Shown: in pieces, positions 12,417-37,444 of the stretch
How the letters are laid out: each line of letters opens with the position of its first letter
How positions within the stretch are numbered: position 1 is the first letter of the stretch
Assembly (NCBI GenBank): GCA_964526245.1
Contig: CAZGLZ010000006.1
Coordinates: 2,215 to 66,214, forward strand
Origin: an uncultured Chloracidobacterium sp.
Lineage (GTDB): Bacteria; Acidobacteriota; Blastocatellia; Pyrinomonadales; Pyrinomonadaceae
DNA: 64,000 bases
Direction of reading: 5' to 3'
The notes under the pieces: generated by a model
The model's database searches: none
What the model was told of the DNA's origin: nothing
The model's input: the letters and a program-made list of their open reading frames with translations, nothing else
Program-made: the position numbers and the translations under genes

Positions 12417-12418
12417 AA

Positions 12419-12455: not shown

Positions 12456-12599
12456 CTTGAGTTCAGGTCAGCACCGTGCGGACCGCGAAGGCCACAAACG
12501 GAGGGCACTTTGATCAGGGTCGGGCAAACATGGGGCCGTCGTTTTAGGTAATTATACGGTGCCGAAGGATAACATGCTTAAGTAGGAGGGAGTTCAACT

Positions 12600-12935: not shown

Positions 12936-12985
12936 CCCATATAGATCCTCGCCCGGAAGCCCGAGAGATTTTCATTAACTACTCT

Positions 12986-14539
12986 ATGTCTGAACCTGTA
13001 ATTGACCCAATTGATTTTCCACAGTCTGAACTTGTTATCGGGCTCGTCGCCCCAGTTGGTACCGACACGCGGTTTATTGTCGATACGATTTCCCAGCGTC
13101 TCGATCGATTCAATTACACGCGTGAACCTTTGAAGTTAAGCGAGTATCTGAAGACCCTAGACTTGGGTGTTCAGATCGATGAAAATACAGCTTTCCGACG
13201 CGTCGTCACGCTCATGGATGCCGGCGACGCATTGCGAAAAAAAGTTGGCGGCGGAGGTGAGAATATTGACGGTTCGGGGGACGCTCTTGCTCGAATTGCC
13301 GTTTCTGAGATTCACAAACGGAGGCCAATCGATACAGCGTCAAACGAAAAGAACGAATCACGCATCGCAAGACCCAAAACAGCTTATATTCTTGACTCGC
13401 TTAAGCATCCAGACGAAATTGTTTTGTTGCGACGAATTTATGGAGATGGGTTCCTCTTGATTAGTATCTCTTCCTCTCGACAGACCAGGAAAGAGAATTT
13501 GGAAAGACGCGGTATGTCAGGTGACGAAGCCGATACCTTAATCAGCCGTGATGAGAATGAGAGCGACCCTTTGGGACAGAAAACTCGAGACGCATTTCAC
13601 TTAGCTGACGCATTTATCGACGCCAATAATCTTGAAACTAGTCGTTCGCAGATTGAGAGAATACTCGACATTCTGTTCGGTGCTCGGTATAAAACGCCAA
13701 CGTTTGCGGAATACGCAATGTTCCTTGCTTTTGCATCAGCCTTTCGATCAGCAGATCTTTCAAGGCAGGTTGGCGCGGCAATTGCATCCAAAACAAATGA
13801 AATTCTTGCGGTCGGTTGTAATGACGTCCCTCGGTTCGGAGGAGGCTTATACTCTAGTGACGACGCCGAAGATCACCGGGACCATAAGCTCGGCGTTGAC
13901 CCGAATGTTCAGAAGCGGAACGAGATCTTCAGCAACATCGCGCAAATGCTGAAGGATAAATATCCAATGGCAGTTGACGGAAAGTCTGTGGAGGAGTTGA
14001 CGCAGGCGGTGAAAAGGGATTTGAAGGCAAGCGTTTTGTCGAGTCTTACTGAGTTTGGACGAACGGTTCATGCCGAAATGGATGCGATTGTAAGTTGTGC
14101 TAGGAGCGGAATCAGTGTTCGCGGGGGTACGCTATATACAACAACATTTCCGTGCCATAATTGTGCCCGTCATATCATTGCTGCTGGTATCGATACTGTT
14201 GTCTACGTTGAACCGTATCCTAAGAGCCAGGCTGGAGAATTGCATGAGGATTCGATAGACTTGGAAACGCAGTCTGCGAATAAGGTAACTTTTAAGCCAT
14301 TTGTTGGAATCGGATCTCGGCGCTTCATGGACTTGTTTTCGATGGGAATGAGTTCAGGCTATCCAATTGAAAGAAAGTCCAACGAATCCGGTGAAAAATT
14401 AGATTGGACGCCTGAGGCCGGTCGCCTAAGGGTTCCAATGTTACCCACGTCATATATCGAACGCGAACGCCTATCAATACAGAAACTGGACAAACTTGAG
14501 GAGGAAAGTGATGTCGATAAAGAAACGGAAGGACACTGA
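12986..14539 (+). CDS. AvcD/DcdV-like anti-phage deoxycytidylate/dCTP deaminase (N-terminal P-loop-kinase-like domain plus C-terminal CMP/dCMP zinc deaminase)
   Basis: Deaminase zinc motifs HAEMDAI (nt ~14069) and PCHNCARHI (nt ~14150). N-terminal LVIGLVAPVGTD glycine-rich loop. Size ~517 aa from ATG 12986; an alternative GTG at 12887 gives 550 aa. Confidence 0.7.
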   Translation: MSEPVIDPIDFPQSELVIGLVAPVGTDTRFIVDTISQRLDRFNYTREPLKLSEYLKTLDLGVQIDENTAFRRVVTLMDAGDALRKKVGGGGENIDGSGDALARIAVSEIHKRRPIDTASNEKNESRIARPKTAYILDSLKHPDEIVLLRRIYGDGFLLISISSSRQTRKENLERRGMSGDEADTLISRDENESDPLGQKTRDAFHLADAFIDANNLETSRSQIERILDILFGARYKTPTFAEYAMFLAFASAFRSADLSRQVGAAIASKTNEILAVGCNDVPRFGGGLYSSDDAEDHRDHKLGVDPNVQKRNEIFSNIAQMLKDKYPMAVDGKSVEELTQAVKRDLKASVLSSLTEFGRTVHAEMDAIVSCARSGISVRGGTLYTTTFPCHNCARHIIAAGIDTVVYVEPYPKSQAGELHEDSIDLETQSANKVTFKPFVGIGSRRFMDLFSMGMSSGYPIERKSNESGEKLDWTPEAGRLRVPMLPTSYIERERLSIQKLDKLEEESDVDKETEGH

Positions 14540-14717
14540 GGAGAACCGTGCTTTTTGGGCATTTGTTGAAGAGACTTCAAGAAGTGTTGAGGAACATTTT
14601 CCCGCTTGGAAACGAGGCGATGGGTTTCAGGAGCCTTCCGAAGGTATAAATGGCAACAGCTCACAAATTCTTTCTTCGGCAAATAAAGATCCTCAGACGG
14701 GCATGAAATGTGATTAG
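14511..14717 (+). CDS. Small hypothetical protein (68 aa) overlapping the deaminase 3' end
   Basis: ATG 14511 preceded by gaggagg (14498-14504). Overlaps the last 29 nt of the deaminase ORF. Confidence 0.35.
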   Translation: MSIKKRKDTEENRAFWAFVEETSRSVEEHFPAWKRGDGFQEPSEGINGNSSQILSSANKDPQTGMKCD

Positions 14718-14779
14718 TTCGTATTGGGTTTTAACCATTTAAGATTGTGATGTACTCTCTCCGATCGTCGAATCTTTGT

Positions 14780-15101
14780 CGCTGGTTTAACTTATTCCAA
14801 TCTCAAGATCTGCGACGCTGTTGGATCGGCCCGAGCCTTTGCTTTTGTTTCCAGGAGGCTCAAGCCCTCCGTGAAAACGACCGCACCCGCTACTCCATCA
14901 GCTCCAATGTCCCCCCAAAAGTCCTAAAACACCTCCCAGCCCTAAACCACCGACGCGCCGCCGAAGAAGCCGCCACCGGCAAAACCAAGAAGCCAAAAGC
15001 CAAGAAATCAAAAACAAAGAGCCAAACCCCGAAACCAGGCACCGACGACGACCCGCCCCCCCCCTCCTAGCCTCCGGTCCTTTGTTTAAGCATGATGAAT
15101 A
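14780..15101 (+). pseudogene. Decayed 3' remnant of a second DrmMI-like methylase (direct repeat copy B)
   Basis: Reads FQEAQALRENDRTRYSIS..VLKHLPALNHRRAAEEAA against FHQVETLPENDRTRYTIS..VLKRLLALNHTRAAEEAA in the intact gene. Upstream CDAVGS and the tail SGPLFKHDE* lie in other frames, indicating frameshifts. There is no upstream ORF body. Confidence 0.7.
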
Positions 15102-15103
15102 GT

Positions 15104-15739
15104 ATGTGGTGTAACAATTTGAGACAAAGCAATTTGAGCGTTGCGAACTATAACAACCTCCATCCCGAAGGACAGAGGTTAATTCGCAGTTGGTTTGACC
15201 GCTCCTGGCAATCGTACGAAGGGAATGACGATGCTTTCGAAGCATTCATTTTTTTGTGGATTTCGTTCAATGGTTGGGCGACGTGTATTACCGGTCTATT
15301 TCGAGACGCAAGTATTATCGATTCTGTCGCTAACAACCAGGTAATTGCGACTGAGTTCATCCGGTTAGTCCGCAACGACCGTGAGTTCGCTGAAAACGTC
15401 AGAGAACTTTGCGACATGCTGCCGATTTTTGATCCGCGAAGACTGCCGAATAGAAACTGGGGATTGTTTTCGCCTGATCAAGAAGGTCGCCGGCGGCAAA
15501 TACAACAATATCTGCAAACTGGGACGAAATCTTTTAACCCCCCGTGCTGGAAAGATCACGTAGACGCCGGTGGTCGAATGCCCACGGATTGGCCGCATGT
15601 CTTAAAGGCGATCTACCAGATCCGCTGTAACCTCTTCCACGGGCAGAAAACCGCTTTTCAAGAACTTGATAGGAGACTGGTCGATCTCGCCTTCAAGATT
15701 CTTCACCGGTTCGTGTCCGACGGTGGCTACCTTAACTAA
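15104..15739 (+). CDS. Second, unrelated HEPN-like protein (Rx4H)
   Basis: IYQIRCNLFHGQK with RCNLFH at nt 15623-15640. Occupies the same position relative to the methylase tail remnant as the first HEPN gene. Confidence 0.5.
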   Translation: MWCNNLRQSNLSVANYNNLHPEGQRLIRSWFDRSWQSYEGNDDAFEAFIFLWISFNGWATCITGLFRDASIIDSVANNQVIATEFIRLVRNDREFAENVRELCDMLPIFDPRRLPNRNWGLFSPDQEGRRRQIQQYLQTGTKSFNPPCWKDHVDAGGRMPTDWPHVLKAIYQIRCNLFHGQKTAFQELDRRLVDLAFKILHRFVSDGGYLN

Positions 15740-15811
15740 AGGATAACCGATACTGAGGCATGGCAAACTCGTCGAATCAGCAAAGCTTTGTCGGTGATAT
15801 GAAGAACTTTC

Positions 15812-17821
15812 ATGATTGAAATTGGTGACATACTGAACGGGATTCGCGAAGAGATTCGTGCAACGCCGGACTATGTCGCGTTTACGATAAAACGGAGTAT
15901 CCGCGAGGGCTCAATCTGGAAGATCATTCTGTCCTCGGATGAAAAGAGCCTAAATGAACTAGATGAAGCACTGGAAGGGGCACTCGTCTGGTGGCCAGGC
16001 AATCCGCCCGGAACGGCCGAGGTCCTTTCGGTAGTTTCGGAAGAGTCGCAACTGAACCTCCGATTTGCGACCCAAACGCCCCCTGAGAACGGAAAGATTC
16101 TCCGCGTTTACCTACCGCAGTATCTAAATAAGCTCGAAGAACTTTGGTCGGATGACATTTGGGCAAATCGGTGCTCCGAATGGCTTAAACGGGTAAGGGC
16201 CACGAACGCGAAAGATGACGTTATTTCCCTGAAGACCTCCAGCTTTCGGTGGCTCCGAGCGTGTCAGAAGAGGGCGTTTGCCCTTCCTGCTTTCAAGGTG
16301 AGTTTCCTGCATGGCCCCCCAGGCACGGGAAAGACGCGAACACTTGGGGCGTTGGTGGCTCAGTTTCTAAGTACGTTCCAAAACGCGCGTGTTCTTTTGC
16401 TTTCGACGACGAATGTCGCAGTCGATGAAGCGATCACTGCTGTCGATTCGGCGTTGCTCGAAGCGCCCGCGTTGAATGGCGGCCCGCGAATTCGGATGAA
16501 CGAGTGCAAGCGGATTGGGAACCAATTTGTTGCTACAAAATACAAGGGACGCCAACACTTGCTTCCAAAGCAGGAACCCGAAATCCTCGAGCAACTAATC
16601 CTCTTAGAGGCCTCACGGCCACGCGAAGAAGATGTCCAAGCCTACGCCACTTGGAAGGAAAGGACCGAAACTTTACGCGCTCAAATGCGTTCCAAGGCAA
16701 TCAACACATTCAGGCATTCGCGGCTTATCGCGATGACGACAACGCTTGCGGTTTATAGCTTCGATGACCTTCGCGAGCACTACCCGGCTGATCTGATCGT
16801 ATTCGATGAATCGAGCCAAGTTGGGCTTGCCCACGCTCTGGCACTTGCCCCGCTCGGAAAGCGGGCTCTTTTTACAGGGGATCCCAATCAGCTTGCCCCG
16901 ATATGTCGGTCGAAGGTGCAGGATTCTGCGGAGTGGCTTGGTCAATCCATGTTCTCCCTCCAAAATGACTTTGAGGAGGCAACGTGTTTCCTTGACGAAC
17001 AGTCCCGAATGACAGAGCCGATCTGTCATGTTGTAAGCAAAACGTTTTATCAAGGAAGGCTAAAGGTGGCTTCGGGCTGCGACACGAAATGGAAACTAGC
17101 GCGGGACGTTTCGTCCTCGCATGCCGAGAAAAATGCCGTAAGCATCCACCGTGTCAAAAAAGAGGGCCAGTATTCTAAGAAGTACGGCGGCTATATAAGG
17201 TATGAATCGGCAGAGCTGATCTCCGCTCTTGTTGGTCGGCTATCAAGTGAACAAGATGCAGCCGATATTCTTGTCTTGACCCCATTTCGCGCTCAGCGTC
17301 GGTTGATAAAAACTTTCTTAAAGAATGGAACGATTAGGGGTGTCAGAGTCAGTACCGTGCACCGTGCCCAGGGAAGCGAATGTCACACGGTTATTTTTGA
17401 CCCCGTCTCAGGAAGCAATAATTTTCTAAATACTGAAGATGCACCTCGGCTAATTAACGTAGCACTGAGTCGAGCAAAGGCCAGACTTGTCGTATTCCTG
17501 TCACCTGACGACTTGGTGAACCCTACACTACAGAAGTTCAATGCGGTAGCTGCGATTCTACCCGGCATTATGCAGAATGACGGCTCGAGGGTGCCGAGAA
17601 TTCAGCAGCATCGCCATATTTCAAGAATACTCGACGAGAACTTTCCGCAGAACGCAATCAACAAAGAAATAACAATACCTTCGAAGAATGGCCTGATGTT
17701 TGGGCGAATTTTGGAGGTTTCCTCCGATGGCGAGAGCTTCAAAATGCAAGTGTACGAAACCGGGGAAGTTAAGAAATTTATCACAGAATTTGTTCGGAAA
17801 AATGCGAAAGGACGTATATAA
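15812..17821 (+). CDS. Superfamily 1 Upf1/DNA2-like helicase (AAA_11/AAA_12 type, COG1112-like)
   Basis: FLHGPPGTGKT, LLLSTTNVAVDE, LIVFDESSQ, FTGDPNQL, VSTVHRAQGSE, NVALSRAK. The first ~150 aa and last ~80 aa are unassigned. Confidence 0.85.
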   Translation: MIEIGDILNGIREEIRATPDYVAFTIKRSIREGSIWKIILSSDEKSLNELDEALEGALVWWPGNPPGTAEVLSVVSEESQLNLRFATQTPPENGKILRVYLPQYLNKLEELWSDDIWANRCSEWLKRVRATNAKDDVISLKTSSFRWLRACQKRAFALPAFKVSFLHGPPGTGKTRTLGALVAQFLSTFQNARVLLLSTTNVAVDEAITAVDSALLEAPALNGGPRIRMNECKRIGNQFVATKYKGRQHLLPKQEPEILEQLILLEASRPREEDVQAYATWKERTETLRAQMRSKAINTFRHSRLIAMTTTLAVYSFDDLREHYPADLIVFDESSQVGLAHALALAPLGKRALFTGDPNQLAPICRSKVQDSAEWLGQSMFSLQNDFEEATCFLDEQSRMTEPICHVVSKTFYQGRLKVASGCDTKWKLARDVSSSHAEKNAVSIHRVKKEGQYSKKYGGYIRYESAELISALVGRLSSEQDAADILVLTPFRAQRRLIKTFLKNGTIRGVRVSTVHRAQGSECHTVIFDPVSGSNNFLNTEDAPRLINVALSRAKARLVVFLSPDDLVNPTLQKFNAVAAILPGIMQNDGSRVPRIQQHRHISRILDENFPQNAINKEITIPSKNGLMFGRILEVSSDGESFKMQVYETGEVKKFITEFVRKNAKGRI

Positions 17822-18189
17822 CAATAAAACACAATCATCGCTATCCGGTAAAACATCTTTCAGTTCGCGTACCGTGGCACGACAACGCATGGAATGGCAC
17901 CGTTTGTATCGATCCGAAATCGAATAGTGCCTGTCTCGCGCTAAAGAGCTGCTCTCTGACCCGCGATGACGAAAAGGAACAGAGTCTTTGCGGAAAGAAA
18001 ATTGAGAATTTGGGACAAAGCGATTTTCCGGCTTGCCTAAAAGAAAGCGGCGCCATGATGGCCAATTTCGCTTTTAATAAGAGCGTAAACCATCCCTACG
18101 TGCTCACCTCGGACATGGCAGCTTACATCTTTCCGGTTTTAGGGAACATTGGTAGTGCCTCTAAGAAGACCATACCTTCAAGCAGTTAG
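17773..18189 (+). pseudogene. Start-less open frame encoding ..HLSVRVPWHDNAWNGTVCIDPKSNSACLALKSC..; likely an N-terminal remnant of a larger gene
   Basis: Read by hand. Frame is open from 17773 to the stop at 18187-18189 with no ATG/GTG/TTG before the conserved-looking RVPWHDNAWNG block. Absent from the ORF track. Confidence 0.3.
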
Positions 18190-18241
18190 CAGGTCGTCGA
18201 GATCAATCTAAGCTAATCCGATCGCAACCGGTCCTGCTTCG

Positions 18242-18496
18242 TCATGAAAGATCGAGTTCGGAATCATCGTCGATAAGGAGATCCGTGCTTACGCCGGCAA
18301 GCCGAGCATACTTCAGAAGCAGTGGATACGAAGGTTCGCGAGTTCCTCGTTCAAATGCCGAGATCGTACTGCGAACCACTTCCTCTTCAACCCCGAGCCT
18401 TTCGATCAACCCGTCTTGAGAAAGTCCGAGCGACAGTCGGATCTGCCTTAGCTTCCTGGCCAAATGCTTCGGTTTCGGCCGAGAGCGTGTTCCCAT
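18242..18496 (-). CDS. XRE-family helix-turn-helix transcriptional regulator
   Basis: LRQIRLSLGLSQDGLIERLGV....ISAFERGTREPS is the typical HTH_3 pattern. Confidence 0.8.
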   Translation of the reverse strand: MGTRSRPKPKHLARKLRQIRLSLGLSQDGLIERLGVEEEVVRSTISAFERGTREPSYPLLLKYARLAGVSTDLLIDDDSELDLS

Positions 18497-18518
18497 TAGA
18501 AGTTACCTCCTAATGGGA
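18491..18518. promoter_or_regulatory. Perfect 9-bp inverted repeat spanning the XRE start codon and SD
   Basis: tcccattag (18491-18499) and ctaatggga (18510-18518), 10-nt spacer containing the SD (aggaggt on the minus strand). Confidence 0.35.
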
Positions 18519-18753
18519 ATTTGGTGATTCGAATGCCCTTGCGAGTAGAGCCATTTGACTCTATACTCTTGCCGTCAGGTCGCTGAGCCGCAGAGATGCA
18601 AATCGACCCAGCATAAGCTGTCAGAAACGAGCCCTCCGGTTGATGGGCATACCGACAAACATATTACGCCAACTTTCGAGGGATGGAAATCTCGCGAGGC
18701 ACTGGTTTCAGATAACCGAAAAGCACTCAACTTTTCGTCTTGGTGAATAAAAA

Positions 18754-19272
18754 ATGCTAGGTATTGAATTTTTGTCGCCGTTGTATTTGATCGTGCTTGC
18801 GCTTTACTTCCTAACGTCATCGATCAAGATGTTTGATATTCGAATGACTCAAGCTAAGAACGGAGCGTGGGGAGAAGACGCTCGACAGGAAGCGCAGAGC
18901 CTGACACTGCCCGGATGGGTCGGCGCAGTCTTTTACCTTGATTTCCTTCTTGGTGGGCTCCTCCTCCTTTTTAATTGGAAGGCCACTCTTGTCGTTTGGA
19001 TTGTCCGCTTTGTCCTCAAAGTCCTTCCGGTACTAGAAACGGTCGGAAATCTGCTTATGTTTCCGTTTCGGCCCAAACCATTAGACCGGGAAAGAGAAGC
19101 TAGAGATCTCGAGCGAGTCCTTCGAGATCTAGCGGAACGAGAGACCAGAGGGGATACCTTTGCGGAGGTACATCGAAGAATGGCGGACATGCTGGCTCAA
19201 GAGGCTGATAGGGAACGAGATGCGAAAAGGGGTGGAACAGCTCGGAATTTCAACCGAGAAAAGGAGAATTAA
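18754..19272 (+). CDS. Membrane protein (about 3 TM) with highly charged C-terminal tail, hypothetical
   Basis: Hydrophobic stretches LSPLYLIVLALYFL, WVGAVFYLDFLLGGLLLLF and LVVWIVRFVLKVL, then a D/E/R-rich tail. Confidence 0.5.
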   Translation: MLGIEFLSPLYLIVLALYFLTSSIKMFDIRMTQAKNGAWGEDARQEAQSLTLPGWVGAVFYLDFLLGGLLLLFNWKATLVVWIVRFVLKVLPVLETVGNLLMFPFRPKPLDREREARDLERVLRDLAERETRGDTFAEVHRRMADMLAQEADRERDAKRGGTARNFNREKEN

Positions 19273-19334: not shown

Positions 19335-19362
19335 TTGACATTTTATGAAATTTGAGTAGTCT
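19335..19362 (+). promoter_or_regulatory. Sigma70-like promoter candidate
   Basis: TTGACA (19335-19340), 16-nt spacer, TAGTCT (19357-19362). Confidence 0.25.
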
Positions 19363-19372
19363 GAAATATGAG

Positions 19373-19433
19373 ACGCCTGCTTCGAAAACGAGTTCCTCTA
19401 TGGAATAACTTCGAGGCAGGCGTTTATTGTTTT
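19373..19433 (+). terminator. Long hairpin with U-rich tail
   Basis: 14-bp stem 19373-19386 / 19410-19423 (one G-U pair) followed by ttattgtttt. Confidence 0.45.
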
Positions 19434-19434
19434 G

Positions 19435-19473
19435 GCCCGTGTATATCAGCAGATGTACACGGGCTTTTTGTTT
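19435..19473 (+). terminator. Canonical rho-independent terminator
   Basis: gcccgtgta (19435-19443) / tacacgggc (19456-19464) followed by tttttgttt. Confidence 0.65.
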
Positions 19474-19527
19474 GCCCAGAAGCTCAAAAGGAATCGCTTC
19501 TGCAGATGAAGAAAAGAGATACGAGAT

Positions 19528-20754
19528 ATGAAGAAGCAAAGGAAAACAGTCTACGTAGATATGGACAACGTCCTGGTGGATTTCCCGTCCGGCATAGCTA
19601 GGCTAAGCGACGAAGATCGCATCGAATATGAGGGACGATATGACGACTGCCCCGGAATCTTCGCCTTGATGGAACCGGTTCCGGGAGCGGTCGAAGGTTT
19701 CCGGAGCGTTGCCGAACGTTTCGACACGTACATTCTGTCGACCGCCCCATGGGCTAACTCCTCGGCGTGGATGCACAAGGCCGAATGGGTGCACAAGCAC
19801 TTCGGAACCGTCGAAGGAACACCCGCATACAAGCGACTGATCATCAGCCATCACAAGAATCTCAACCGCGGCCACTATCTGATCGATGATCGGACAAAGA
19901 ACGGAGCCTCGGAGTTCGAAGGCGAACATATTCTGTTTGGATCCGAACAGTTTCCCGACTGGAAAACGGTCGTCGAATATTTGATTCAGGCCGAAAGGCC
20001 GGTCGCCGAGAATCGCGACAGATTCTTCCAACCTTTCCCGGAACATCATAATGGGACTTATAAGGTGGTTCCGATCGAAAACCTTATTCCCACAAAAACT
20101 AACCCGGACAAGTCTGTTGAGAACGCTCTCACGCACATCCGCGGACTCGACTCAGGTAACGATGGAGAACACCCTCGTAAACCACTCGACGTACTGGATA
20201 ACGGCGACGGAAGATACTCCATAGTCGACGGAAACGCTACGCATGCAGCCGCACAAATTCTTGAGTGGAGAGAACTGCCGGTGCGTGTAATGGAAAACAC
20301 TCCCGTATTGGACAGGGCCATCCAGATCGCCGCACAGGTCCATGCGGGACAGACCGATAAAGCCGGTGCTCCTTACCTTCTACATCCGATTCGGTTGATG
20401 ATGAAGATGAAATCCGACGCCGCCAAGATCGTCGCAGTGCTGCACGATGTCATTGAGGACTGTTGGCCGAAAGGTAGCTGGACATTCGAACGGCTCAGAA
20501 GCGAGGGTTTTTCCGAAGCCGTCGTTGAAGCACTCAAATGCGTTACAAAGCTGCATGAGAATGAGGACTACGATGAGTTCATTGACCGGTCAATGAGTAA
20601 CGCGATTGCACGCGAAGTAAAACTGGCCGATCTCGAAGACAACATGAACATGCTACGAATGAGCGAGTTGCGACCGAAGGATCTTGAACGGCTCGCAAAG
20701 TACCACCGCTCGTGGCACAGACTATCCGCTGCCGGCGAAGGAGTAAATCTATGA
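19528..20754 (+). CDS. Three-domain fusion: NT5C-type 5'(3')-deoxyribonucleotidase (HAD), ParB/Srx-like domain, and RelA/SpoT-type HD (small alarmone hydrolase-like) domain
   Basis: VYVDMDNVLVDF (DxDxV HAD motif) and the LIDDR region. YSIVDGNATHAAAQILEWRELPVRV is ParB-N-like. AAQVHAGQTDKAGAPYLLHP...VAVLHDVIED...KLADLEDNM is the HD_4 pattern. Confidence 0.7.
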   Translation: MKKQRKTVYVDMDNVLVDFPSGIARLSDEDRIEYEGRYDDCPGIFALMEPVPGAVEGFRSVAERFDTYILSTAPWANSSAWMHKAEWVHKHFGTVEGTPAYKRLIISHHKNLNRGHYLIDDRTKNGASEFEGEHILFGSEQFPDWKTVVEYLIQAERPVAENRDRFFQPFPEHHNGTYKVVPIENLIPTKTNPDKSVENALTHIRGLDSGNDGEHPRKPLDVLDNGDGRYSIVDGNATHAAAQILEWRELPVRVMENTPVLDRAIQIAAQVHAGQTDKAGAPYLLHPIRLMMKMKSDAAKIVAVLHDVIEDCWPKGSWTFERLRSEGFSEAVVEALKCVTKLHENEDYDEFIDRSMSNAIAREVKLADLEDNMNMLRMSELRPKDLERLAKYHRSWHRLSAAGEGVNL

Positions 20755-21551
20755 CAATGCCAATAGATCTAATACTTGTTCGCCACGGACACAGCGAAGG
20801 GAATCTGGCCGTGAGTAGGTCCAAGAAAGGAGACGATAGTCTGTATACTCCCGATTTTCGAGAACGTCCGGGACATCGTTGGAGGCTGACGGCCGAGGGA
20901 CAAGAGCAAGCAGCAACCGCCGGCAAATGGATACTCGACAACATAGGAGTTCAGTTCGATCGATACTACGCGTCACCCTACGTGCGAACTCAGGAAACGG
21001 CCGCTTTGCTCGATCTTCCCGGTGCCGAGTGGCGGCTCGACCAGCGACTTCGCGAACGCGACTGGGGCGAGATAGGATCGGTTCCGATACCGGAACAGGC
21101 CAGTCTCTATCCTCGAAACATAGTCCTACAGAAAACAGATGCCCTTTACTGGCGGCCACCTGGTGGTGAGTCGATAGCGGATGCTCGCATGCGTGTCCGG
21201 ACCTTCTTCGACACGCTGCACCGCGAGTGCGAAGGCCAATCCGTCGTCGTCGTAACGCACGGCGACATTATCTCAGCCGTGAGAGGAGCTATCGAATATC
21301 TAAGCGATGAGGAATGGCTGGCGTTCGACCGTGACGAATCGAAGCGGATCCTGAATTGCCATATCTATCACTATTCCCGACGCGACCCGTCCACCGGCGA
21401 GGTCGGGAAATATCTGAGCTGGCGGCGTGCTGTCTGCCCTACCGACACCGGTATTGACACGGGCTGGGAAACGATCACCCGCAAGAGATTCAGTAACGCA
21501 GAGCTGCTCGAACGCGTTAGCCGCGTCGAGCCAACCGTGGAGGTGCGATGA
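20751..21551 (+). CDS. Histidine phosphatase superfamily (phosphoglycerate-mutase-like) protein
   Basis: LILVRHGHSEGN (RHG motif) and VVVVTHGDII. ATG 20751 forms an ATGA overlap with the upstream stop. Confidence 0.8.
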   Translation: MTMPIDLILVRHGHSEGNLAVSRSKKGDDSLYTPDFRERPGHRWRLTAEGQEQAATAGKWILDNIGVQFDRYYASPYVRTQETAALLDLPGAEWRLDQRLRERDWGEIGSVPIPEQASLYPRNIVLQKTDALYWRPPGGESIADARMRVRTFFDTLHRECEGQSVVVVTHGDIISAVRGAIEYLSDEEWLAFDRDESKRILNCHIYHYSRRDPSTGEVGKYLSWRRAVCPTDTGIDTGWETITRKRFSNAELLERVSRVEPTVEVR

Positions 21552-22870
21552 TCATCCCCGACCCAATAAAGAAGACGGTCAAGATACCGATAAGGATCGT
21601 CGATGGCCAGGTCCGTTACTTCTACGGCGGCGAGCTCCCGAAGCTCAAAAACGTAGTTGGCGACCTCGTCATTCCCGCCTTTGCTCTCCTTGATCAAGAA
21701 CAGGCAAAAGAACTTTCCCACGAAGACGTCTCCGAAATGCTGCCTGCCGGTTCGGAGTTGATGATCAACGTTAGGGTCGATACCTACTCCGAAGGGGTAC
21801 TGACGGAATTGCGGGATAGCTCGGCAGACCTTCCTGGTTTTGCCCCAAAGGAAGGTTTTGTAAGGTTTTGTTTAGACGAACCTTTATATCTGTGGCATCG
21901 CGGGACCAAAACGAGTCAGCTTAACCCGTGCAAAGGCCATTTTGTCGACTTGGATGGAGAGGCAACAAGCCTTAATCACGCATACACGATCGCTTCTAAG
22001 AAATTCGAGACGAAGAGGACGTCGAACACCGGGAACGTCTTCAAGCATGTTTATTACAAAAGCAAGCACGGATGGGAACCGCTTGAGTGGCTTCGCGAAA
22101 GGCTCGACGCACAATTTGAACAAAGGTACCTCAGGTCCGAAAATGCAGAGATCGGACCGCCCGAAGGTGCTCGCGGTTTGTTTCCAAAAGTCGAAGAATT
22201 TCCCGATGTGGAAGTTGAGAAAGTCCCGGAAACGGAAACCGAACCACACATCAATCAACGCTTTCCTGATGATTCCACCATTAAGACGTTTGACGAATAT
22301 ATGGCTGAAGGATGCTATCACTATGATCAAACATACTGGCGATACAACATAAGCGGCGAGCTCAGAACGATCCCCCTTCGAATTCGCATGAAGGATTTTC
22401 GGTTGTCAAAAAGTCAGAAAAGGGTTCTGAGAATTAACGCGGATCTTGACCTCCAAAAGCTGCCATTGAATGTGACGAAGGATGGTGAAGAATGCAAGTT
22501 GTTTAAGCTCCACAACGTCCGGTTCGGGGAACATGCCCCGAAAAAGGTAAACCTCCCCCTGGGAGAACGGAATAGGAAATTCTGTGTTTTAGACGACGGC
22601 AAGCTTATCGCAGCGAGCTTTTTTGAAATGGGGGCCAACGCCTCACACGGCTATTACTGCATTTTCGACCCCTCCATCGAATGGCGAAGCCTCGGCATTT
22701 TCACAATGCTTAAAGAGATCGAATATGCCAGAGAACAAGCAAACGAGTTTTATTACCTCGGCTATGCTTTTGATAAGCCGACTCTCTATGATTACAAAAA
22801 ACGCTTCCACGGACTCGAGAGCTACGACTGGAAAACCGGAGAATGGGTCGACTTCAAAAGATCAGTCTAG
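21548..22870 (+). CDS. Protein with unassigned N-terminal ~260 aa and C-terminal Bpt/ATE-type aminoacyl-tRNA-protein transferase domain
   Basis: FRLSKSQKRVLR and YCIFDPSIEWRSLGIFTMLKEIEYAREQANEFYYLGYAFDKPTLYDYKKRFHGLESYDWKTGEWV match the conserved Bpt/ATE_C pattern (SxG..., YxYLGYxI..., xYKxxFxPxE). ATGA overlap with the upstream gene. Confidence 0.6.
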   Translation: MIIPDPIKKTVKIPIRIVDGQVRYFYGGELPKLKNVVGDLVIPAFALLDQEQAKELSHEDVSEMLPAGSELMINVRVDTYSEGVLTELRDSSADLPGFAPKEGFVRFCLDEPLYLWHRGTKTSQLNPCKGHFVDLDGEATSLNHAYTIASKKFETKRTSNTGNVFKHVYYKSKHGWEPLEWLRERLDAQFEQRYLRSENAEIGPPEGARGLFPKVEEFPDVEVEKVPETETEPHINQRFPDDSTIKTFDEYMAEGCYHYDQTYWRYNISGELRTIPLRIRMKDFRLSKSQKRVLRINADLDLQKLPLNVTKDGEECKLFKLHNVRFGEHAPKKVNLPLGERNRKFCVLDDGKLIAASFFEMGANASHGYYCIFDPSIEWRSLGIFTMLKEIEYAREQANEFYYLGYAFDKPTLYDYKKRFHGLESYDWKTGEWVDFKRSV

Positions 22871-22920: not shown

Positions 22921-22948
22921 CTCCGCCTGAGGAGGGTTCAGGCGGGAG
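22921..22948. terminator. Hairpin between convergent genes (no clear U-tract)
   Basis: ctccgcctga / tcaggcgggag with one bulge and a 7-nt loop. Confidence 0.3.
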
Positions 22949-22953
22949 AGAGT

Positions 22954-25900
22954 CTATCGGACAAACGCATTCGGCAGCGGTCTATCGCCGGTGGTGCCGA
23001 ATTGAAGGATGAGCGGCCCTCCCGTTGATCTCAACGCGAACCAGTTCGAGTTCGATGGCCTGAAGACCGCTGCGTCGATCTTCCCGTCGCCATCATAATC
23101 GCCCGGTGCCGGAAGATCGCCATTGGCTCCCCACGGGAAAGCGTAGAAACTCGAGTCCTCGCTGCGAAGCACGTACCATTCACCGGTCGAAGGCCGGAAG
23201 TATGCCAGGTCGGCCTTGCCGTCGCCGGTGTAATCGCCCGGCACGGTCAGGTCGGTCGCCGAGCCGAACGCGAATGCACGGTTGGCTCCGTCGCTCGATC
23301 TCAGATACCACCACTCGCCGCCGCCCGAGCCGCCCGTTGGACGGAAGATCGCCACGTCGGCCTTGCCGTCGCCGTCGTAATCGGCCGGGACGGGCCTGTC
23401 GCCCGCAGTTCCGAACGGCGTCGCCGCAACCTGCCCATCCGACGAACGCAGCGTGAACCACGTGTTCGTCGAAGGCCTGTAAACCGTCGCGTCCGACTTC
23501 CCGTCCCCGTCAAAATCCGCCGGCGAAGGCACGTCGCCCGCCGCCCCGAACGGGAACGCAAAGAACGTCGAATCCTCCGACCTCAACACGAACCACTCGC
23601 CCGAGGCCGGCCGCCAGAAAGCAAGGTCCGTCTTCCCGTCGCCCGTGAAATCCGCCGGCACGATCGTGTCCGTCGCCTCACCAAAAGCAAACGCCCGATT
23701 CCCACCATCCGACGACCTCAAATACCACCACTCCGATCCACTTCCACCAACCGGCCGAAACACCGAGATGTCCGTCTTTCCATCACCATCAAAATCAATC
23801 CCCGCTTTGGGTCTCACCAAAAATACATACGCGTTTATTCCTCCCAACATCGGCGATGATGCAAGAGCAGAGCCAGCTTTTGTATCTCGCTTGCCGTTTC
23901 CCGAAGGATCATCGGCAATGGGGTTGACCGAGGTCGCATCAGTTCCGTCCGTTGCGTAGAAATAGATAATATGGATGCCTGGCCTCAAATTAGAGGTGAT
24001 CGCCTTCGCGGTTAGTGTGGTCGCCGTGCTGGCGGTGTTCGAAGCTCTTGTCCACATTCCGTTAGTGGAATTCAGCTGGAAGTAAATATTCCGAGGCTGA
24101 GGCGCGGTCGGAGAGTATGTTGAAGAGGCAAATAACTCGAAATGCGGGTTCGGATGATTCGCTATGTTTCCAGGGAGGGGCGTGATGCTGGTATTCAGAG
24201 GAATCGAGTTTGTGGGAACAGGGGTAATAACGGTTAAATTGTCGCTCCCTTGATTAGTAACATAGACCCTATTAGTAATTGGATTTACCGCGACTGAAGA
24301 TGGGTTATCAGCCGAAGGAATAAATGTCCTTGAGTTATTCGTTCCATCGATCGCGGAAACCGTCCCTGCGACAGCTAATGAGAAATTCGCTACATAGATC
24401 TTATTATTTGATAGGTTAACAGCGACCGCCAGTGGATTCACACCTCCTTGAATGTTTGATGTTGAATTGTTCGTCCCGTTGATTACGGTCACGTTACCAC
24501 CCGAGTTTGCGACATAGATCCTATTGGACAAAGGGTTAACCGCCACACCGTCTGGAGAGGTACCTACTGGAATTGTCGTAACTGCCTTACTGGCTCCATC
24601 GATAAGCGTAACTGTGTTGCTGTCCCGATTGGTCACATAGATCCTGTTTGTCGAGTCATTAACAGCAATGCCCTCGGGGCCGTTGCCCACGGCAATCGAA
24701 GTCGTCGAATTCGTATAACCGTTAATAACGGTGACGTTATTGCTATTCCGGTTGGTCACATAGATCTCGTTGGTCACGGAATTGACTGCGATAGCATTGG
24801 GCCCGATTCCTGCTGGAACGTTGGTCGCCGAGTTGCTTGAACCGTCGATTACTGTCACGTTGTTGCTGTTATTATTCGCCACATAAATTTTATTCGTCAC
24901 TGGATTGACAACTATTGCTTCAGGAAAAGATCCGGCAGCAACCGTTGTTGTAGAATTGTCCGTCCCGTCAATCACAGTAACGTTGTTACTTTTATTGGCT
25001 ACATAAATTAAGTTGGTTATAGGATTGACTGCGATCGCCACCGGGCCAGTACCGTTTATTACGGAAGTTGACGAATTGTTCGCACCATCGATCACAGTGA
25101 CGCTTCCTGAGCCTGTTCCGCCGGAGCAAGCAGATCCGCAATTTGCGACATAGATTTTGTTTGTTACGGGATTGATCGCGACGGCTGATGGTCTTGAACC
25201 TGTAGTGACAAAAGCTGTCGTATTATACGAGCCGTCAATCACAGTCACACTAGCACTATCTCTGTTCGCTGAATATATCTTGTTTGTATTCGGATTTACA
25301 GCTAGATCGATCGGCGACGAACCTGCAGTTACCGTCGATTGGGAATTGTCGATACCATTGATTACTGACACACTCGCCCCGCCGAAGTTGGCCACATAGA
25401 CTTTATTCGTAAACGAGTTAATTGCCACAGAGGTTGGCGAGGAACCAGACGGAACCGTACCCGTGGAGTTATCAACCCCGTTTATCACAGTGACATTGTT
25501 GCTCGATTGATTGGCTACGTAGATCTTATTTGTCACGGAATTAACGGCTAACGCAACTGGTTGTGATCCCGTCGTTATTGATGCAACTGAGTTATCCACG
25601 CCGTTTATAACCTTAACGACGCTCTCACCCTGAATTGAGACATAAATCATGTTTGTCACAAAGTTGATCGCTATTCCCCGTGGATTAAAACCAATATTGA
25701 ATGTATTTGTCGCATTACTGGTGCCGTCAATAACGGTTACGCTGCCACTGAAATTGTTGACGACGTATATCAAGTTGGTAACTGGATTGACTGCGATCGC
25801 TGCGGGCCCCATGCCGACCGCTACTGTTGTAGTGGTATGGTCGTCTCCGTTTATAACGGTTACACTATTGCTCCCGAGACTGGTGTTGGCCACATAGATC

Positions 25901-26346
25901 TTATTGGTCACCGAATTTATCGCCAGGGCGCTAGGTTCGGCCCCTACTGAAATCGTCATGGTCGAATTGTCCGCTCCATCGATAACGGTGACACTTGCAC
26001 CACCTTCATTCGCAACATAAATCCGATTCGTTGTTGGGTTGATCGCCAGCGAATTGGGACCAACGCCCGTAGCAATCGATGTTGTAGAGTTGTTTGTACC
26101 GTCTATAACCGACACGTTGTTCGCCGATCTGTTTGCGACATAAATCCGGTTTGTCAGCGGATTGACAGCAACGGCAGCAGGGCCACCACCAACTGGAATA
26201 TCTCCAATTGAGGTGTCGGCCTGCACGATCGTTTCGATAAAGTGGAAGTTGATGATCTGGCCAGTCATCACTAAAACCAGAAGCAAGACAAATCGAGACG
26301 TCTTTTTAAGCAATCCCGACGCGCTCGAAGGCTTAACCAATTTCAT
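22954..26346 (-). CDS. Secreted surface protein: about 16 YVTN-type beta-propeller repeats plus 6 C-terminal FG-GAP/VCBS-like repeats
   Basis: N-terminal signal/TM LLLVLVMTGQIINF. Repeated N[KR]IYVAN..S..VTVIDG..NS. C-terminal DFDGDGKTDISVFRP-type repeats. Confidence 0.8.
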   Translation of the reverse strand: MKLVKPSSASGLLKKTSRFVLLLVLVMTGQIINFHFIETIVQADTSIGDIPVGGGPAAVAVNPLTNRIYVANRSANNVSVIDGTNNSTTSIATGVGPNSLAINPTTNRIYVANEGGASVTVIDGADNSTMTISVGAEPSALAINSVTNKIYVANTSLGSNSVTVINGDDHTTTTVAVGMGPAAIAVNPVTNLIYVVNNFSGSVTVIDGTSNATNTFNIGFNPRGIAINFVTNMIYVSIQGESVVKVINGVDNSVASITTGSQPVALAVNSVTNKIYVANQSSNNVTVINGVDNSTGTVPSGSSPTSVAINSFTNKVYVANFGGASVSVINGIDNSQSTVTAGSSPIDLAVNPNTNKIYSANRDSASVTVIDGSYNTTAFVTTGSRPSAVAINPVTNKIYVANCGSACSGGTGSGSVTVIDGANNSSTSVINGTGPVAIAVNPITNLIYVANKSNNVTVIDGTDNSTTTVAAGSFPEAIVVNPVTNKIYVANNNSNNVTVIDGSSNSATNVPAGIGPNAIAVNSVTNEIYVTNRNSNNVTVINGYTNSTTSIAVGNGPEGIAVNDSTNRIYVTNRDSNTVTLIDGASKAVTTIPVGTSPDGVAVNPLSNRIYVANSGGNVTVINGTNNSTSNIQGGVNPLAVAVNLSNNKIYVANFSLAVAGTVSAIDGTNNSRTFIPSADNPSSVAVNPITNRVYVTNQGSDNLTVITPVPTNSIPLNTSITPLPGNIANHPNPHFELFASSTYSPTAPQPRNIYFQLNSTNGMWTRASNTASTATTLTAKAITSNLRPGIHIIYFYATDGTDATSVNPIADDPSGNGKRDTKAGSALASSPMLGGINAYVFLVRPKAGIDFDGDGKTDISVFRPVGGSGSEWWYLRSSDGGNRAFAFGEATDTIVPADFTGDGKTDLAFWRPASGEWFVLRSEDSTFFAFPFGAAGDVPSPADFDGDGKSDATVYRPSTNTWFTLRSSDGQVAATPFGTAGDRPVPADYDGDGKADVAIFRPTGGSGGGEWWYLRSSDGANRAFAFGSATDLTVPGDYTGDGKADLAYFRPSTGEWYVLRSEDSSFYAFPWGANGDLPAPGDYDGDGKIDAAVFRPSNSNWFALRSTGGPLILQFGTTGDRPLPNAFVR
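24225..26190 (-). repeat. Coding tandem repeat, about 129-bp period (YVTN blades)
   Basis: 16 recognisable IYV[AT]N...VTVI[DN]G units in the translation. Confidence 0.7.
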
Positions 26347-26488
26347 ATATTCGTCTTTCTTTCTAAACTTCTCGCAATGGTAAGGTCATATGCGCGGTTT
26401 TGCAAGAGCTTTTAAAAGTAGAAACCTCCGAACATTGCGCGGTCTTTTGACGAGGTAGGGTCGAAACGAAGAAGGTAGGGCGTCCACA

Positions 26489-27880
26489 ATGAGAAATATT
26501 TTCTATGACTACGAGACATCCGGTTTTAGCCGTTCATTTGACCAAGTTTTTAGTTTCGGTGCAGTTGTTACCGATGAAAATTTCAATTTAATTGAAGATC
26601 CAATCGAGCTCCATTGCAGACCTCGGCCAGATATTTTGCCAAGCCCCAAGGCAATGTTGGTCAATAGGCTCGATTTAGAAATGTTGGCAAGTAACGGTCT
26701 AACTGAGTATGAGTTTGCTCGCCGGATTCACGACGTCTTTACCAAAGAAACGAACACTTGCATATTTGGTTATAACAGCAAGAAATTTGACGATAGCTTT
26801 ACTGAGTTTCTCTTTTACCGAAACTTACTTCCGCCGTATGAATGGCGGTTTCGGAACGGAAACTCATCAGCGGATTTGATTGAACTATTCCGATTTGCTC
26901 ACAGCTTCGGGCGATTAGGTGGGTTATCTTGTCTCGATGAAAACAACCGTCTCTCGTTCAAGCTGGAAGACCTCGCGAAACGAAATTTAACGAACATTTC
27001 AATCGCGCACGACGCACTGAGTGATGCAATGACAACCCAAAGACTTTGTAAGGAGCTAAAGAGCAGTTCGACTAAGTTATTTGAATTCGGTTTAGGAATG
27101 AGGAGCTTTAATCGTGCAAGCGAAGAGTTAGTGAAGCGCAAACAGTTTTTTCATAGTGACGTGTGCTATGGAGCGGAGAAGAACAATTTGGCACTGCTCA
27201 CCTTAATCGCCAAACATCCTCTTATCCCGAAACGGGTAATCGCCTGGCGCCTCGACAAGGATCCGCGCGAAGTTATCGTTCTCTCGATTGACGACTTAAA
27301 GGCTGACCGCAATCTACGCTTCGACGCAGGTTTTGTTGAACTGAAAGTCAATCGTGGTCCGATGATCGTCGCCTACAATGAAGCATTTAATTCGCAGCTT
27401 ATCGGCTTTGATCACGCCGAAGTCAATTTCCAACTTGTAACGGAAAACTTGGAGTCCCTTCGAGAAATTGCGTCTCAAGTATACAGCTCCAGTTATTCCC
27501 CGTCCGAAGACGTCGATAATGCACTCTATGATTCGAGCTTCTTTAATGAATTCGACGCGAACCAACGATATATTAGCGATTTTCATGAGGCTCCAAATAG
27601 CTTTAACTTGGGTAAATTTACGAATTCACGGTTTACCAAACTTGGATTGCGAATACGTGCTCGGAATATGCCCGAGCATCTCACCGAGACCCAAAAAGTT
27701 CGTTTCAAACAGTTCGTGGCTGATCGCTTATCGTCCGAGAATAGCCTCGGTTGGCGAACGGCAAAAGAATTTTATGAGGAAATCGCCGAAATCAAAGAGC
27801 GCGAGAATATTGCGAGCGACGACCTTGAGATCATCGATAAACTTTGTGATTACGCCAAAACCATCCTTCCACAGTCATAG
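26489..27880 (+). CDS. sbcB: Exodeoxyribonuclease I
   Basis: FYDYETSG (Exo I), FGYNSKKFDD, AHDALSDA (DEDDh), and C-terminal DVDNALYDSSFF and RIRARNMPEHL blocks that parallel E. coli SbcB. Confidence 0.85.
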   Translation: MRNIFYDYETSGFSRSFDQVFSFGAVVTDENFNLIEDPIELHCRPRPDILPSPKAMLVNRLDLEMLASNGLTEYEFARRIHDVFTKETNTCIFGYNSKKFDDSFTEFLFYRNLLPPYEWRFRNGNSSADLIELFRFAHSFGRLGGLSCLDENNRLSFKLEDLAKRNLTNISIAHDALSDAMTTQRLCKELKSSSTKLFEFGLGMRSFNRASEELVKRKQFFHSDVCYGAEKNNLALLTLIAKHPLIPKRVIAWRLDKDPREVIVLSIDDLKADRNLRFDAGFVELKVNRGPMIVAYNEAFNSQLIGFDHAEVNFQLVTENLESLREIASQVYSSSYSPSEDVDNALYDSSFFNEFDANQRYISDFHEAPNSFNLGKFTNSRFTKLGLRIRARNMPEHLTETQKVRFKQFVADRLSSENSLGWRTAKEFYEEIAEIKERENIASDDLEIIDKLCDYAKTILPQS

Positions 27881-28043
27881 CCCTTTCATTAGTATGGAAT
27901 CCTAGATGCGGCGATATGCCGCCGGAGGCCGACAAAACATTGGGTCTCAGACGGTTCTCGGGTGGTTTTGGGCCGTTGTTCGGACGACGCGGACAGTTGT
28001 ACGGAGGTCGCGGGCAGGTCTTTCTCGTCCCGGTGAGTGAGTA

Positions 28044-28526: not shown

Positions 28527-28610
28527 CCGGGCATCTTACCAAACCGCAGTTCCCTTTTTTAGCATGTAGACTTTTGTCTACATTCTTACTTGGGCTTCTC
28601 ACTCAAATCT

Positions 28611-29501: not shown

Positions 29502-29602
29502 TTCATTTCTCCATTCGTGTTGCGGGCCTACTTTAACAATGGGGTTTCAATCCCGAGGGACTTAACTCCAGATTTCCACCCCGCGTGTGATTGATCATCC
29601 TA

Positions 29603-32150: not shown

Positions 32151-32153
32151 CCT

Positions 32154-32639: not shown

Positions 32640-32650
32640 AAAACTTAACC

Positions 32651-37432: not shown

Positions 37433-37444
37433 CTCTGCTAAAAA

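Follow-up and report, generated by a model that had tools for sequence, protein, structure and literature searches.

A modular acidobacterial gene cassette built on a long ATE/Bpt-like aminoacyl-tRNA transferase: a candidate conflict system

Aph1 of Bacteroides caccae (PDB 7SMG) protects enzymatically, as an immunity protein, against (p)ppApp-synthetase toxins, and its homologues are found in very diverse contexts; ppApp was hydrolysed by all 13 enzymes tested, Aph1 itself and 12 homologues, and specificity is marked by a signature of six residues, D24, R96, D116, R119, K133 and Y134 (PMC10083569). The N-terminal domains of Shedu (SduA) proteins are diverse infection/stress sensor or regulatory domains, some of them with novel folds, and Shedu genes are frequently embedded in restriction–modification loci (bioRxiv 10.1101/2023.08.10.552793). 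Together with the modules of toxSAS toxins and small alarmone hydrolases (SAH), the Bpt and ATE1 transferases of the N-degron pathway, DISARM, and the NT5C nucleotidases of phages, these are the closest described counterparts of the locus reported here, an operon of three coupled genes at positions 19528 to 22870 of a 64,000-nucleotide stretch of DNA, hereafter the window, from an uncultured Chloracidobacterium sp. (assembly GCA_964526245.1, contig CAZGLZ010000006.1). We tentatively read this locus, with distinctly less than even confidence, as a modular conflict cassette, probably antiphage or anti-toxin, in which a sensor–effector protein with an ATE-like effector domain is accompanied by accessory phosphohydrolases. 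The enzyme domains are new members of known families, and their combination, the long ATE-like architecture and the family of the N-terminal domain of the third protein (the N-domain) are undescribed in PADLOC or in the literature searched. The open reading frames (ORFs) of the operon and their domains are the following.

19528–20754, + strand: ORF1, 408 aa
19528–20022, + strand: NT5C-type HAD 5'(3')-deoxyribonucleotidase domain, ORF1 residues 1–165
20023–20301, + strand: divergent ParB/Noc N-terminal-like domain, ORF1 residues 166–258
20302–20754, + strand: predicted Aph1-type HD (p)ppApp hydrolase domain, ORF1 residues 259–408
20751–21551, + strand: ORF2, histidine phosphatase, 266 aa counted from the ATG
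21548–22870, + strand: ORF3, ATE/Bpt-like protein, 440 aa
21548–22135, + strand: unannotated N-domain, ORF3 residues 1–196
22136–22240, + strand: variable low-confidence linker, ORF3 residues ~197–231
22241–22870, + strand: ATE/Bpt-like aminoacyl-tRNA transferase domain with a GNAT-type fold, ORF3 residues ~232–440

The HD domain of ORF1 aligns along the whole of Aph1, keeps its HD motif and five of the six signature residues and, as is the case for many Aph1 homologues, does not adjoin a synthetase toxin; it differs from Aph1 in being fused to NT5C and ParB-like domains, in being co-translated with a histidine phosphatase and an ATE-like protein, and in having Asn in place of D116. With the toxSAS/SAH modules, exemplified by FaRel–ATfaRel, the cassette shares an SAH-type HD hydrolase placed first in a tightly overlapping operon and a predicted chemistry on adenosine 3'-pyrophosphates and tRNA 3' ends, but it has no RSH (RelA/SpoT homologue) synthetase toxin, it carries a phosphatase and a transferase downstream, and in some loci it dispenses with the hydrolase. 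ORF3 has the ATE_C domain, the GNAT-type fold and the core residues of short bacterial Bpt-like proteins in common with Bpt/ATE1, whereas the extra N-domain and linker, the lack of the Cys motif and the location in a conflict-island operon with nucleotide phosphatases set it apart. Its presumed logic is that of type 1 Shedu, a variable N-terminal sensor joined to a C-terminal effector, and both are tied to restriction–modification-like loci; the effector of ORF3, however, is an aminoacyl-tRNA transferase domain and not a DUF4263 PD-(D/E)xK nuclease. SduA_C (DUF4263) is absent from ORF3, which is not a Shedu family member, and one Shedu-type protein shares only the N-domain with it. Standalone homologues of the N-domain end operons that resemble class 1 DISARM (DrmD, DrmMI and helicases), and such a module lies 8 kb upstream of the cassette here, but the cassette forms its own transcription unit with a putative promoter, occurs mostly in DISARM-free loci, and contains in the N-domain no recognised Drm component.

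The original prediction of three real and translationally coupled genes is borne out by the raw sequence, in which both ATGA overlaps can be read: 20751–20754 between ORF1 and ORF2 (ATG 20751–20753, TGA 20752–20754) and 21548–21551 between ORF2 and ORF3 (ATG 21548–21550, TGA 21549–21551). For ORF2, a conserved N-terminal MxMP in 27 homologues supports the start at 20751. Domain scans confirmed the predicted NT5C, HD, His_Phos_1 and ATE_C domains, and none of the cassette domains has a second copy within the window. The GC content at third codon positions (GC3) of ORF1–3, 0.57–0.60, is like that of the island genes, the genes at 53–60 kb having values of 0.69–0.76. Best hits indicate an acidobacterial source, the matching metagenome-assembled genomes being Chloracidobacterium/Pyrinomonadaceae-like.

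The three genes had been taken for a unit, and outside this genome the cassette indeed recurs, in about ten acidobacterial contexts. Their synteny therefore stands, but the fixed gene content does not: partners are swapped, fused or lost, and only the long ATE-like gene is constant across the variants. The arrangements, with loci from other genomes designated by L numbers, are as follows.

HD (150 aa)–HisPhos–ATE: L001, L005/6, L009, L138, L091
NT5C–ParB–HD–HisPhos–ATE: the window and L010, the only two such contexts
HD remnant (last 48 codons)–HisPhos–ATE: L007, L133/4
ATE (546 aa), then NT5C: L092
NT5C, then ATE: L135
Solo ATE-like gene with metH: L002 9171–11344; L004 10001–14917; L137 196–5151

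Gene 1 is in most loci a 150-aa Aph1-type HD protein. The partners are tied together because fusions of NT5C with HD, of ParB with HD and of the histidine phosphatase with ParB exist; any explanation of the locus must centre on ORF3 because ORF3 alone is constant. Solo long ATE-like genes lie directly upstream of metH (L002/L136 and L004/L137), and in a rough neighbour-joining tree, computed without support values, these solo forms nest within the partnered ones, which suggests that they derive from partner loss. The gene for the B12-dependent methionine synthase, metH, abuts the ATE-like gene in L004 and L137, and the ATE-like gene of L002 has a thymidine kinase gene before it; an operonic link of the ATE-like gene to methionine or one-carbon metabolism is possible.

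The genes found near the cassette differ from locus to locus.

Window: DISARM-like module and dCTP deaminase
L001: EH_Signature/SNF2, Zorya-like
L005: DUF4011 helicase and a Panacea toxin–antitoxin pair
L010: type I restriction–modification
L092: type III restriction–modification and RHS
L007: integrase
L133: Hsp70-like protein, kinase–AAA protein, RHS fragment
L138: RhuM
L009, L091: housekeeping-like genes

Restriction–modification, DISARM- or Zorya-like, toxin–antitoxin, RHS or integrase genes thus lie within 10 kb in about six of the ten distinct contexts. The window, L001 and L005 have their chromosomal neighbourhood in common (ExoI is 95% identical and the helix-turn-helix regulator gene 78–89% at the level of DNA, with 89% in the case of L001), and the cargo inserted around the cassette differs among the three.

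ORF3 begins with a separate and conserved domain of about 195 aa, the N-domain, which the original prediction had overlooked. When 1.84 billion representative proteins were searched with a profile of this domain, 800 clusters (50% identity) were recovered, for the most part standalone proteins of about 200 aa. Conserved family-wide are R118, K121, S141, N143, Y146, E154, R157, the GNVF motif at 162–165 and R183; these residues are mostly basic or polar, and such a composition would fit a phosphate-rich ligand. No match was found in Pfam, PADLOC, PHROG or PDB sequences, four standalone N-domain proteins hit no PADLOC model at E up to 0.01, and the predicted structure, of moderate confidence (core pLDDT, the confidence score of the model, 84–94), retrieved nothing below E 0.5 when compared by Foldseek with PDB and BFVD. 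Motif-based guesses that the domain is ADP-ribosyltransferase-like ('HRGT'), a 2H phosphoesterase, an RSH synthetase or a PD-(D/E)xK enzyme found no support and were dropped. The relatives whose genomic surroundings were examined are the following.

L139, 8001–8615: standalone N-domain gene
L140, 8001–8612: standalone N-domain gene
L143, 8001–8612: standalone N-domain gene
L144, 11977–13164: N-domain–Shedu fusion gene, 395 aa, Calothrix plasmid AP025019.1

All three standalone genes looked up (L139, L140–142, L143) come last or nearly last in DISARM-like operons that contain a DrmMI methylase and SNF2/DruE-like helicases, and in two of the three the N-domain gene overlaps the preceding gene. 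The Calothrix protein combines SduA_C, the nuclease domain of Shedu (Pfam, 2.4e-22), with a homologue of the N-domain (hhalign probability 97.9%, E 3e-13), and a further DrmMI/SNF2 module is found a few kb away from its gene. BLAST searches of plasmids and phages for further contexts yielded this plasmid as their sole find, and a metagenome scan, whose patterns were overly specific, returned only six close fused relatives. The four contexts, DISARM-like operons and a Shedu fusion, argue most strongly for a defence-type architecture of ORF3, with a shared sensor or regulatory domain joined to an enzymatic effector. Apart from the cassette, the widespread restriction-like systems gain in the N-domain family a candidate for a new component, sensory or accessory. 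The tail position that the standalone N-domain protein occupies in the DISARM-like operons of other genomes is held, in the module upstream of the cassette, by a 239-aa gene; this was considered as an N-domain homologue and rejected (hhalign probability 0.1%).

The C-terminal domain of ORF3 scores 60.9 bits with ATE_C against a Pfam cut-off of 25 (2.4e-16) and keeps every column that is invariant among short (~245 aa) acidobacterial Bpt-like proteins. ATE_N stays below threshold (14.7 bits against a Pfam cut-off of 27); in the alignment, GWRHFG/YHYD stands in place of the Cys-containing ATE_N segment, and there is no conserved Cys. All seven NCBIfam arginyltransferase models are likewise under their cut-offs, the best being NF002346 with 80.8 bits against 170 (1e-22). 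As the Cys-rich ATE_N motif is lacking and all NCBIfam cut-offs are missed, we therefore refer to the protein as ATE-like and not as a certified arginyl- or leucyl-transferase. The AlphaFold model of ORF3 (pLDDT 77) has ATE1 as its top Foldseek match (8tzv, E 9.3e-12), followed by MprF, FemX and the aminoacyl-tRNA-dependent peptide synthases Sbb17/Sba18. Between the two domains, the linker varies in length and sequence in the alignment, is longer in the 546-aa variants, and has a pLDDT below 50 at residues 188–229.

The partners of ORF3 are phosphohydrolases with intact catalytic motifs. The NT5C domain of ORF1 (53.3 bits against a Pfam cut-off of 24.8, 4.2e-14) contains the DMDNV motif (D11-M-D13-N-V) and matches cytosolic and mitochondrial deoxyribonucleotidases in the PDB at about 1e-8. 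It is 58–62% identical to enzymes of T4-like phages, namely genes of KVP40-like T4-type Vibrio phages, and the HD domain matches phrog_990 (8.8e-43); the NT5C and HD parts thus have close relatives in phages, the original prediction having noted that NT5C and small alarmone hydrolases are common in phage genomes. Fusions of NT5C and HD of about 300 aa are common (555 matches); from these bacterial NT5C–HD proteins and from the phage enzymes ORF1 is distinguished by its ParB-like insert and by its coupling to an ATE-like gene, the 408-aa form with the insert being rare (three to four proteins found). Aligned by phmmer, ORF1 residues 258–399 match residues 5–141 of Aph1 (7smg) with an E-value of 3.7e-34; the LHD, EDN and HP motifs are present, the signature is kept in D277, R354, R377, K391 and Y392, and N374 corresponds to D116, while Pfam HD_4 reaches 23.8 bits, under its cut-off of 27.2. 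On this basis the domain is predicted to be an Aph1-type (p)ppApp hydrolase. The original assignment to SpoT-type HD enzymes was right in recognising an HD domain like those of alarmone hydrolases and needs correction as to type, which is that of Aph1 rather than generic SpoT.

The segment between NT5C and HD gives weak matches to ParB-like families of PHROG (1e-4 to 1e-3) and to the Noc N-terminal structure 7nfu (E 0.04), and no Pfam match to ParB_N; DGNATH replaces the NTP-binding motif GERRxR, the arginines of which are gone. The same ParB-like domain is fused to HD alone in protein P0287 (40% identity, E 5e-24) and, in protein P0118, stands C-terminal to a histidine phosphatase of the ORF2 subfamily (36% identity, E 3e-18; ParB_N E 0.0014). 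ORF1 and ORF2 are functionally linked in our view because the ParB-like domain is fused both to HD and to an ORF2-type phosphatase. Four proteins of about 400 aa, P0116, P0118, P0121 and P0125, are ORF2-subfamily histidine phosphatases with a C-terminal ParB-like domain.

ORF2 itself scores 106 bits with His_Phos_1 against a Pfam cut-off of 21.7 (2.6e-30) and reaches no NCBIfam equivalog cut-off; R11, H12, G13, R79, E102 and H170 are invariant across 27 homologues. It belongs to a distinct and tight subfamily of 265-aa proteins with 617 homologues, the L001 copy being 96% identical, and subfamily members occur in Patescibacteria, Planctomycetota, Actinobacteria, Gammaproteobacteria and Acidobacteria. 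Two distant full-length members (33–38% identity) are encoded at L093 8001–8762 and L094 8001–8771, on large viral contigs of IMG/VR, 178 kb and 129 kb in length.

Assembled into a mechanism, these parts would work as follows. The N-domain would sense a nucleotide or nucleic-acid cue, presumably a phosphate-rich ligand, and the ATE-like domain, catalytically intact as judged by its motifs, would move an amino acid from aminoacyl-tRNA to an acceptor. The likeliest acceptor, by analogy with Bpt/ATE1, would be a protein N-terminus, which would thereby become an N-degron. The interchangeable Aph1-type HD, histidine phosphatase and NT5C enzymes would eliminate (d)NMPs and adenosine nucleotides that bear a 3'-(pyro)phosphate, and could in this way either clear the cue that controls ORF3, as an off-switch, or shield the cell from toxins that make (p)ppApp. 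Here we infer the acceptor and the amino acid used by the transferase, the substrates of the histidine phosphatase and of NT5C, and any defence phenotype. If the locus is indeed a defence or counter-toxin module, aminoacyl-tRNA-dependent transfer, of the kind that produces N-degron tags, would join the chemistries of bacterial immunity, and alarmone-like adenosine nucleotides would be linked to a transferase effector. A bolder version, which we regard as doubtful, is that this is the first immune or conflict system with an aminoacyl-tRNA-dependent transferase as effector, in which a new sensor family detects the cue and switches on ATE-like tagging or the aminoacylation of nucleotides, and phosphohydrolases erase the cue.

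Several observations weigh against the preferred reading. The sensor role of the N-domain is deduced from protein architecture, its model having no structural match, and the four N-domain contexts examined are a small sample. ORF1–3 match no family of PADLOC-DB v2 at E up to 0.1, a result that agrees, along with an empty literature search, with the earlier statement that the operon corresponds to no published system; literature linking ATE/Bpt arginyltransferases to phage defence, or describing NT5C–SAH fusions, was not found. No RSH synthetase (RelA_SpoT) was detected among the window ORFs scanned, at 1–19272 and 22954–38422 (maximum E 1e-3 to 1e-4, so that a divergent toxSAS could escape), and RelA_SpoT is absent also from the precomputed Pfam lists for the other cassette loci. 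The solo full-length ATE-like genes near metH (L002, L004 and L137) have housekeeping-like surroundings, in L091 it is the full cassette that occupies this metH site, and L009 and L138 are without obvious defence neighbours. The cassette is confined to one acidobacterial lineage, and its gene order is therefore partly a matter of shared descent. Finally, across 41 GTDB loci from many phyla the ORF2 subfamily has no conserved neighbour and no general pairing with HD or ATE; being mostly solitary outside the cassette, it may have an independent function.

The chief rival, rather unlikely in our estimate, is a counter-toxin or tRNA 3'-end repair cassette that undoes the chemistry of RSH-type toxins delivered by phages, secretion systems or toxin–antitoxin modules. 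The Aph1-type HD enzyme would strip the 3'-pyrophosphate from (p)ppApp and possibly from tRNA CCA ends, the histidine phosphatase and NT5C would clear 2'-, 3'- and 5'-monophosphates, and the ATE-like protein would act on, or check, the aminoacylated tRNA 3' end. The close relationship of the HD domain to Aph1, which neutralises (p)ppApp-synthetase toxins and whose homologues hydrolyse ppApp (PMC10083569), speaks for such a function, as does the ability of certain small alarmone hydrolases to reverse the pyrophosphorylation of tRNA CCA ends by toxSAS (bioRxiv 10.1101/2021.04.30.441581). The products of genes 1 and 3 would, moreover, both handle the 3'-terminal adenosine of tRNA or a nucleotide mimicking it, and the window, L133 and L092 all have fragments of RHS/YD polymorphic toxins close to the cassette. 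On the other side, the constant component is the ATE-like gene, and the Aph1 gene is dispensable, as L007, L133 and L134 retain only a 48-aa remnant of it and L092 and L135 lack it; the transferase has no obvious role in repair, the scan of neighbouring genes revealed no RSH toxin, and the N-domain in DISARM-like and Shedu contexts is left unexplained.

Regulation of the cassette bears on a further rival, that of ordinary physiology, and involves the elements listed here.

19335–19362, + strand: promoter-like element, with TTGACA at 19335–19340, a 16-nt spacer and TAGTCT at 19357–19362
19368–19475, + strand: conserved leader, with ATGAGACGC at 19368–19376, a long hairpin at ~19371–19425 and a terminator-like hairpin at 19434–19465 followed by a T-run
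22923–22945, no strand: downstream hairpin with a predicted 9-bp stem, between the convergent ORF3 and NHL/FG-GAP genes

The element ATGAGACGC precedes the cassette, in a single copy, in the window, L001, L005, L007, L009, L010 and L133, and L138 has ATGAGACGT instead, which amounts to one synonymous-type change; the leader positions in the other loci are L001 8520, L005 6452, L007 6947, L009 6426, L010 5820, L133 4947 and L138 1638. At equal distance upstream of it, TTGACw, a spacer of about 16–17 nt and TAtTCT are found in eight cassette loci, a conservation from which a promoter function of 19335–19362 may be deduced, although this element was not listed by a generic sigma-70 scan. A leader fold of two hairpins is predicted in all eight loci, the sequence of the first hairpin differing between locus types, and one or two intrinsic-terminator-like hairpins with T-runs precede the first gene in the eight cassette loci with enough upstream sequence. 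The matches from Rfam were of a generic two-hairpin kind and all below threshold (trpB motif, 30.6 bits against 59), and the single compensatory pair among four close sequences is too little to prove the structure. Of the upstream terminators in the original prediction, the terminator scan confirms one strong hairpin with a T-run at 19434–19465, but more is involved than the termination of the gene before it: since the same leader precedes the cassette in other loci, the hairpin belongs to the cassette leader. This suggests conditional read-through (attenuation) and makes the leader a candidate attenuator or small RNA; a transcript starting at the AUG of ATGAGACGC would encode Met-Arg-Arg, a possible leaderless start, and a leader-peptide mechanism based on it would be speculation. 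The downstream hairpin, also predicted earlier, is present but has no T-run and folds no better than shuffled sequences (z −1.08), and it is missing from the output of the terminator scan.

A leader that bears a terminator is typical of metabolic attenuation, and would suit a cassette that represents the N-degron (Bpt-type) transferase of this lineage, equipped with a substrate-recognition domain and coregulated under stress or starvation with phosphatases of alarmone and nucleotide turnover, its location in an island being incidental. This, too, we consider rather improbable. It accords with the solo ATE-like genes just upstream of metH in three genomes, where the neighbours include enolase, phosphoglycerate mutase, thymidine kinase and peptidases, with the L091 cassette at the same metH site, with the chromosomal neighbourhood common to the window, L001 and L005, and with the closeness of the C-terminal domain of ORF3 to short acidobacterial Bpt-like proteins. 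It is at odds with the fact that a Shedu nuclease and DISARM-like operons also contain the N-domain, with at least six unrelated cassette contexts, several of them by restriction–modification, integrase or toxin–antitoxin genes, with the modular shuffling of partners and the island-like GC3, and with an ORF3 that has no Cys motif and misses the NCBIfam arginyltransferase cut-offs. Should the housekeeping interpretation be true, Acidobacteria would have, in this locus, a Bpt of unusual long form, and the operon would serve (p)ppApp and nucleotide turnover under the control of an attenuator.

Poorly placed, and quite improbable, is a small-molecule pathway in which the ATE-like domain aminoacylates a nucleoside or nucleotide from aminoacyl-tRNA and the phosphatases trim a phosphorylated precursor, the product being an aminoacyl-nucleoside with the role of a signal or antimetabolite. 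The Foldseek matches that follow ATE1 (MprF, FemX, Sbb17/Sba18) depend on aminoacyl-tRNA and have acceptors other than proteins, every partner is a nucleotide phosphohydrolase, and pairings of ATE with NT5C and of ATE with the histidine phosphatase recur in independent arrangements; yet the cassette has beside it no further conserved genes for biosynthesis, export or self-resistance, the domain is nearest in sequence to the protein-modifying Bpt/ATE enzymes, and solo ATE-like genes exist without a phosphatase.

The weakest of the alternatives, capture of a phage counter-defence or auxiliary-metabolism cassette as a whole, had been raised in the original prediction and is highly improbable: it can point to the KVP40-like kinship of NT5C, 320 phage records matching ORF1, the phrog_990 and phrog_12933 matches of ORF1 and ORF2, and the integrase adjacent to the cassette in L007, but neither the ATE-like protein nor the N-domain has relatives in IMG/VR or PHROGs, nor the N-domain in GenBank phages, the phage relatives of ORF2 are few (two distant full-length ones in IMG/VR and two partial ones in GenBank phages), the whole cassette was not found in the phage collections searched, and no phage structural or replication genes lie beside it in any locus.

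The setting in a defence island, part of the original prediction, is confirmed for the window by the genes on both sides of the cassette: a DISARM-like module, a dCTP-deaminase gene and an SF1 helicase upstream, and patatin, endonuclease and RHS/YD genes downstream. The upstream features are these.

1–12416: DISARM-like module, with a DruE-like helicase cut off at the window start
4965–7823: DrmD/DpdE-like SNF2 helicase of the DISARM-like module
7820–11707: DrmMI methylase of the DISARM-like module (PADLOC, 5.7e-215)
11697–12416: tail gene of the DISARM-like module, 239 aa, overlapping the methylase gene, with a weak HEPN-like match
12887–14539: dCTP-deaminase defence gene, 550 aa, with a cytidine/dCMP-deaminase domain (PADLOC model, 1.1e-166)
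15812–17821: SF1 helicase, MkoA/MkoC-like (Mokosh-type; match at 1.3e-51)
18242–18496, − strand: divergent Xre-type helix-turn-helix regulator (Pfam HTH_3, 2e-10; PADLOC HTH_VI, capH and control-protein models)

The SF1 helicase is preceded by an ORF of 215 aa (15092–15739) that has no match in Pfam, PADLOC or PHROGs. The dCTP-deaminase gene, of a nucleotide-depletion type of defence, lies a few kb from the NT5C-containing operon. The Xre-type regulator gene is found upstream of the cassette in four loci, the window, L001, L005 and L010, and is absent in L007, L009, L091, L133 and L138; it is probably a neighbour of the cassette and not a core part.

Downstream of the cassette follow genes for an NHL/FG-GAP repeat protein, ExoI, a non-specific endonuclease, a patatin-like protein and YD-shell/RHS fragments. 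The regions 28611–34531 and 38945–44140 hold the non-specific endonuclease, the patatin-like protein, a YD-shell/RHS C-terminal fragment and a 1731-aa ORF, the last of the same length as a gene annotated as RHS-repeat in L092. Small ORFs downstream of the YD-shell/RHS fragment may represent orphan toxin–immunity pairs, and RHS fragments flank the cassette in L133 and L092 too.

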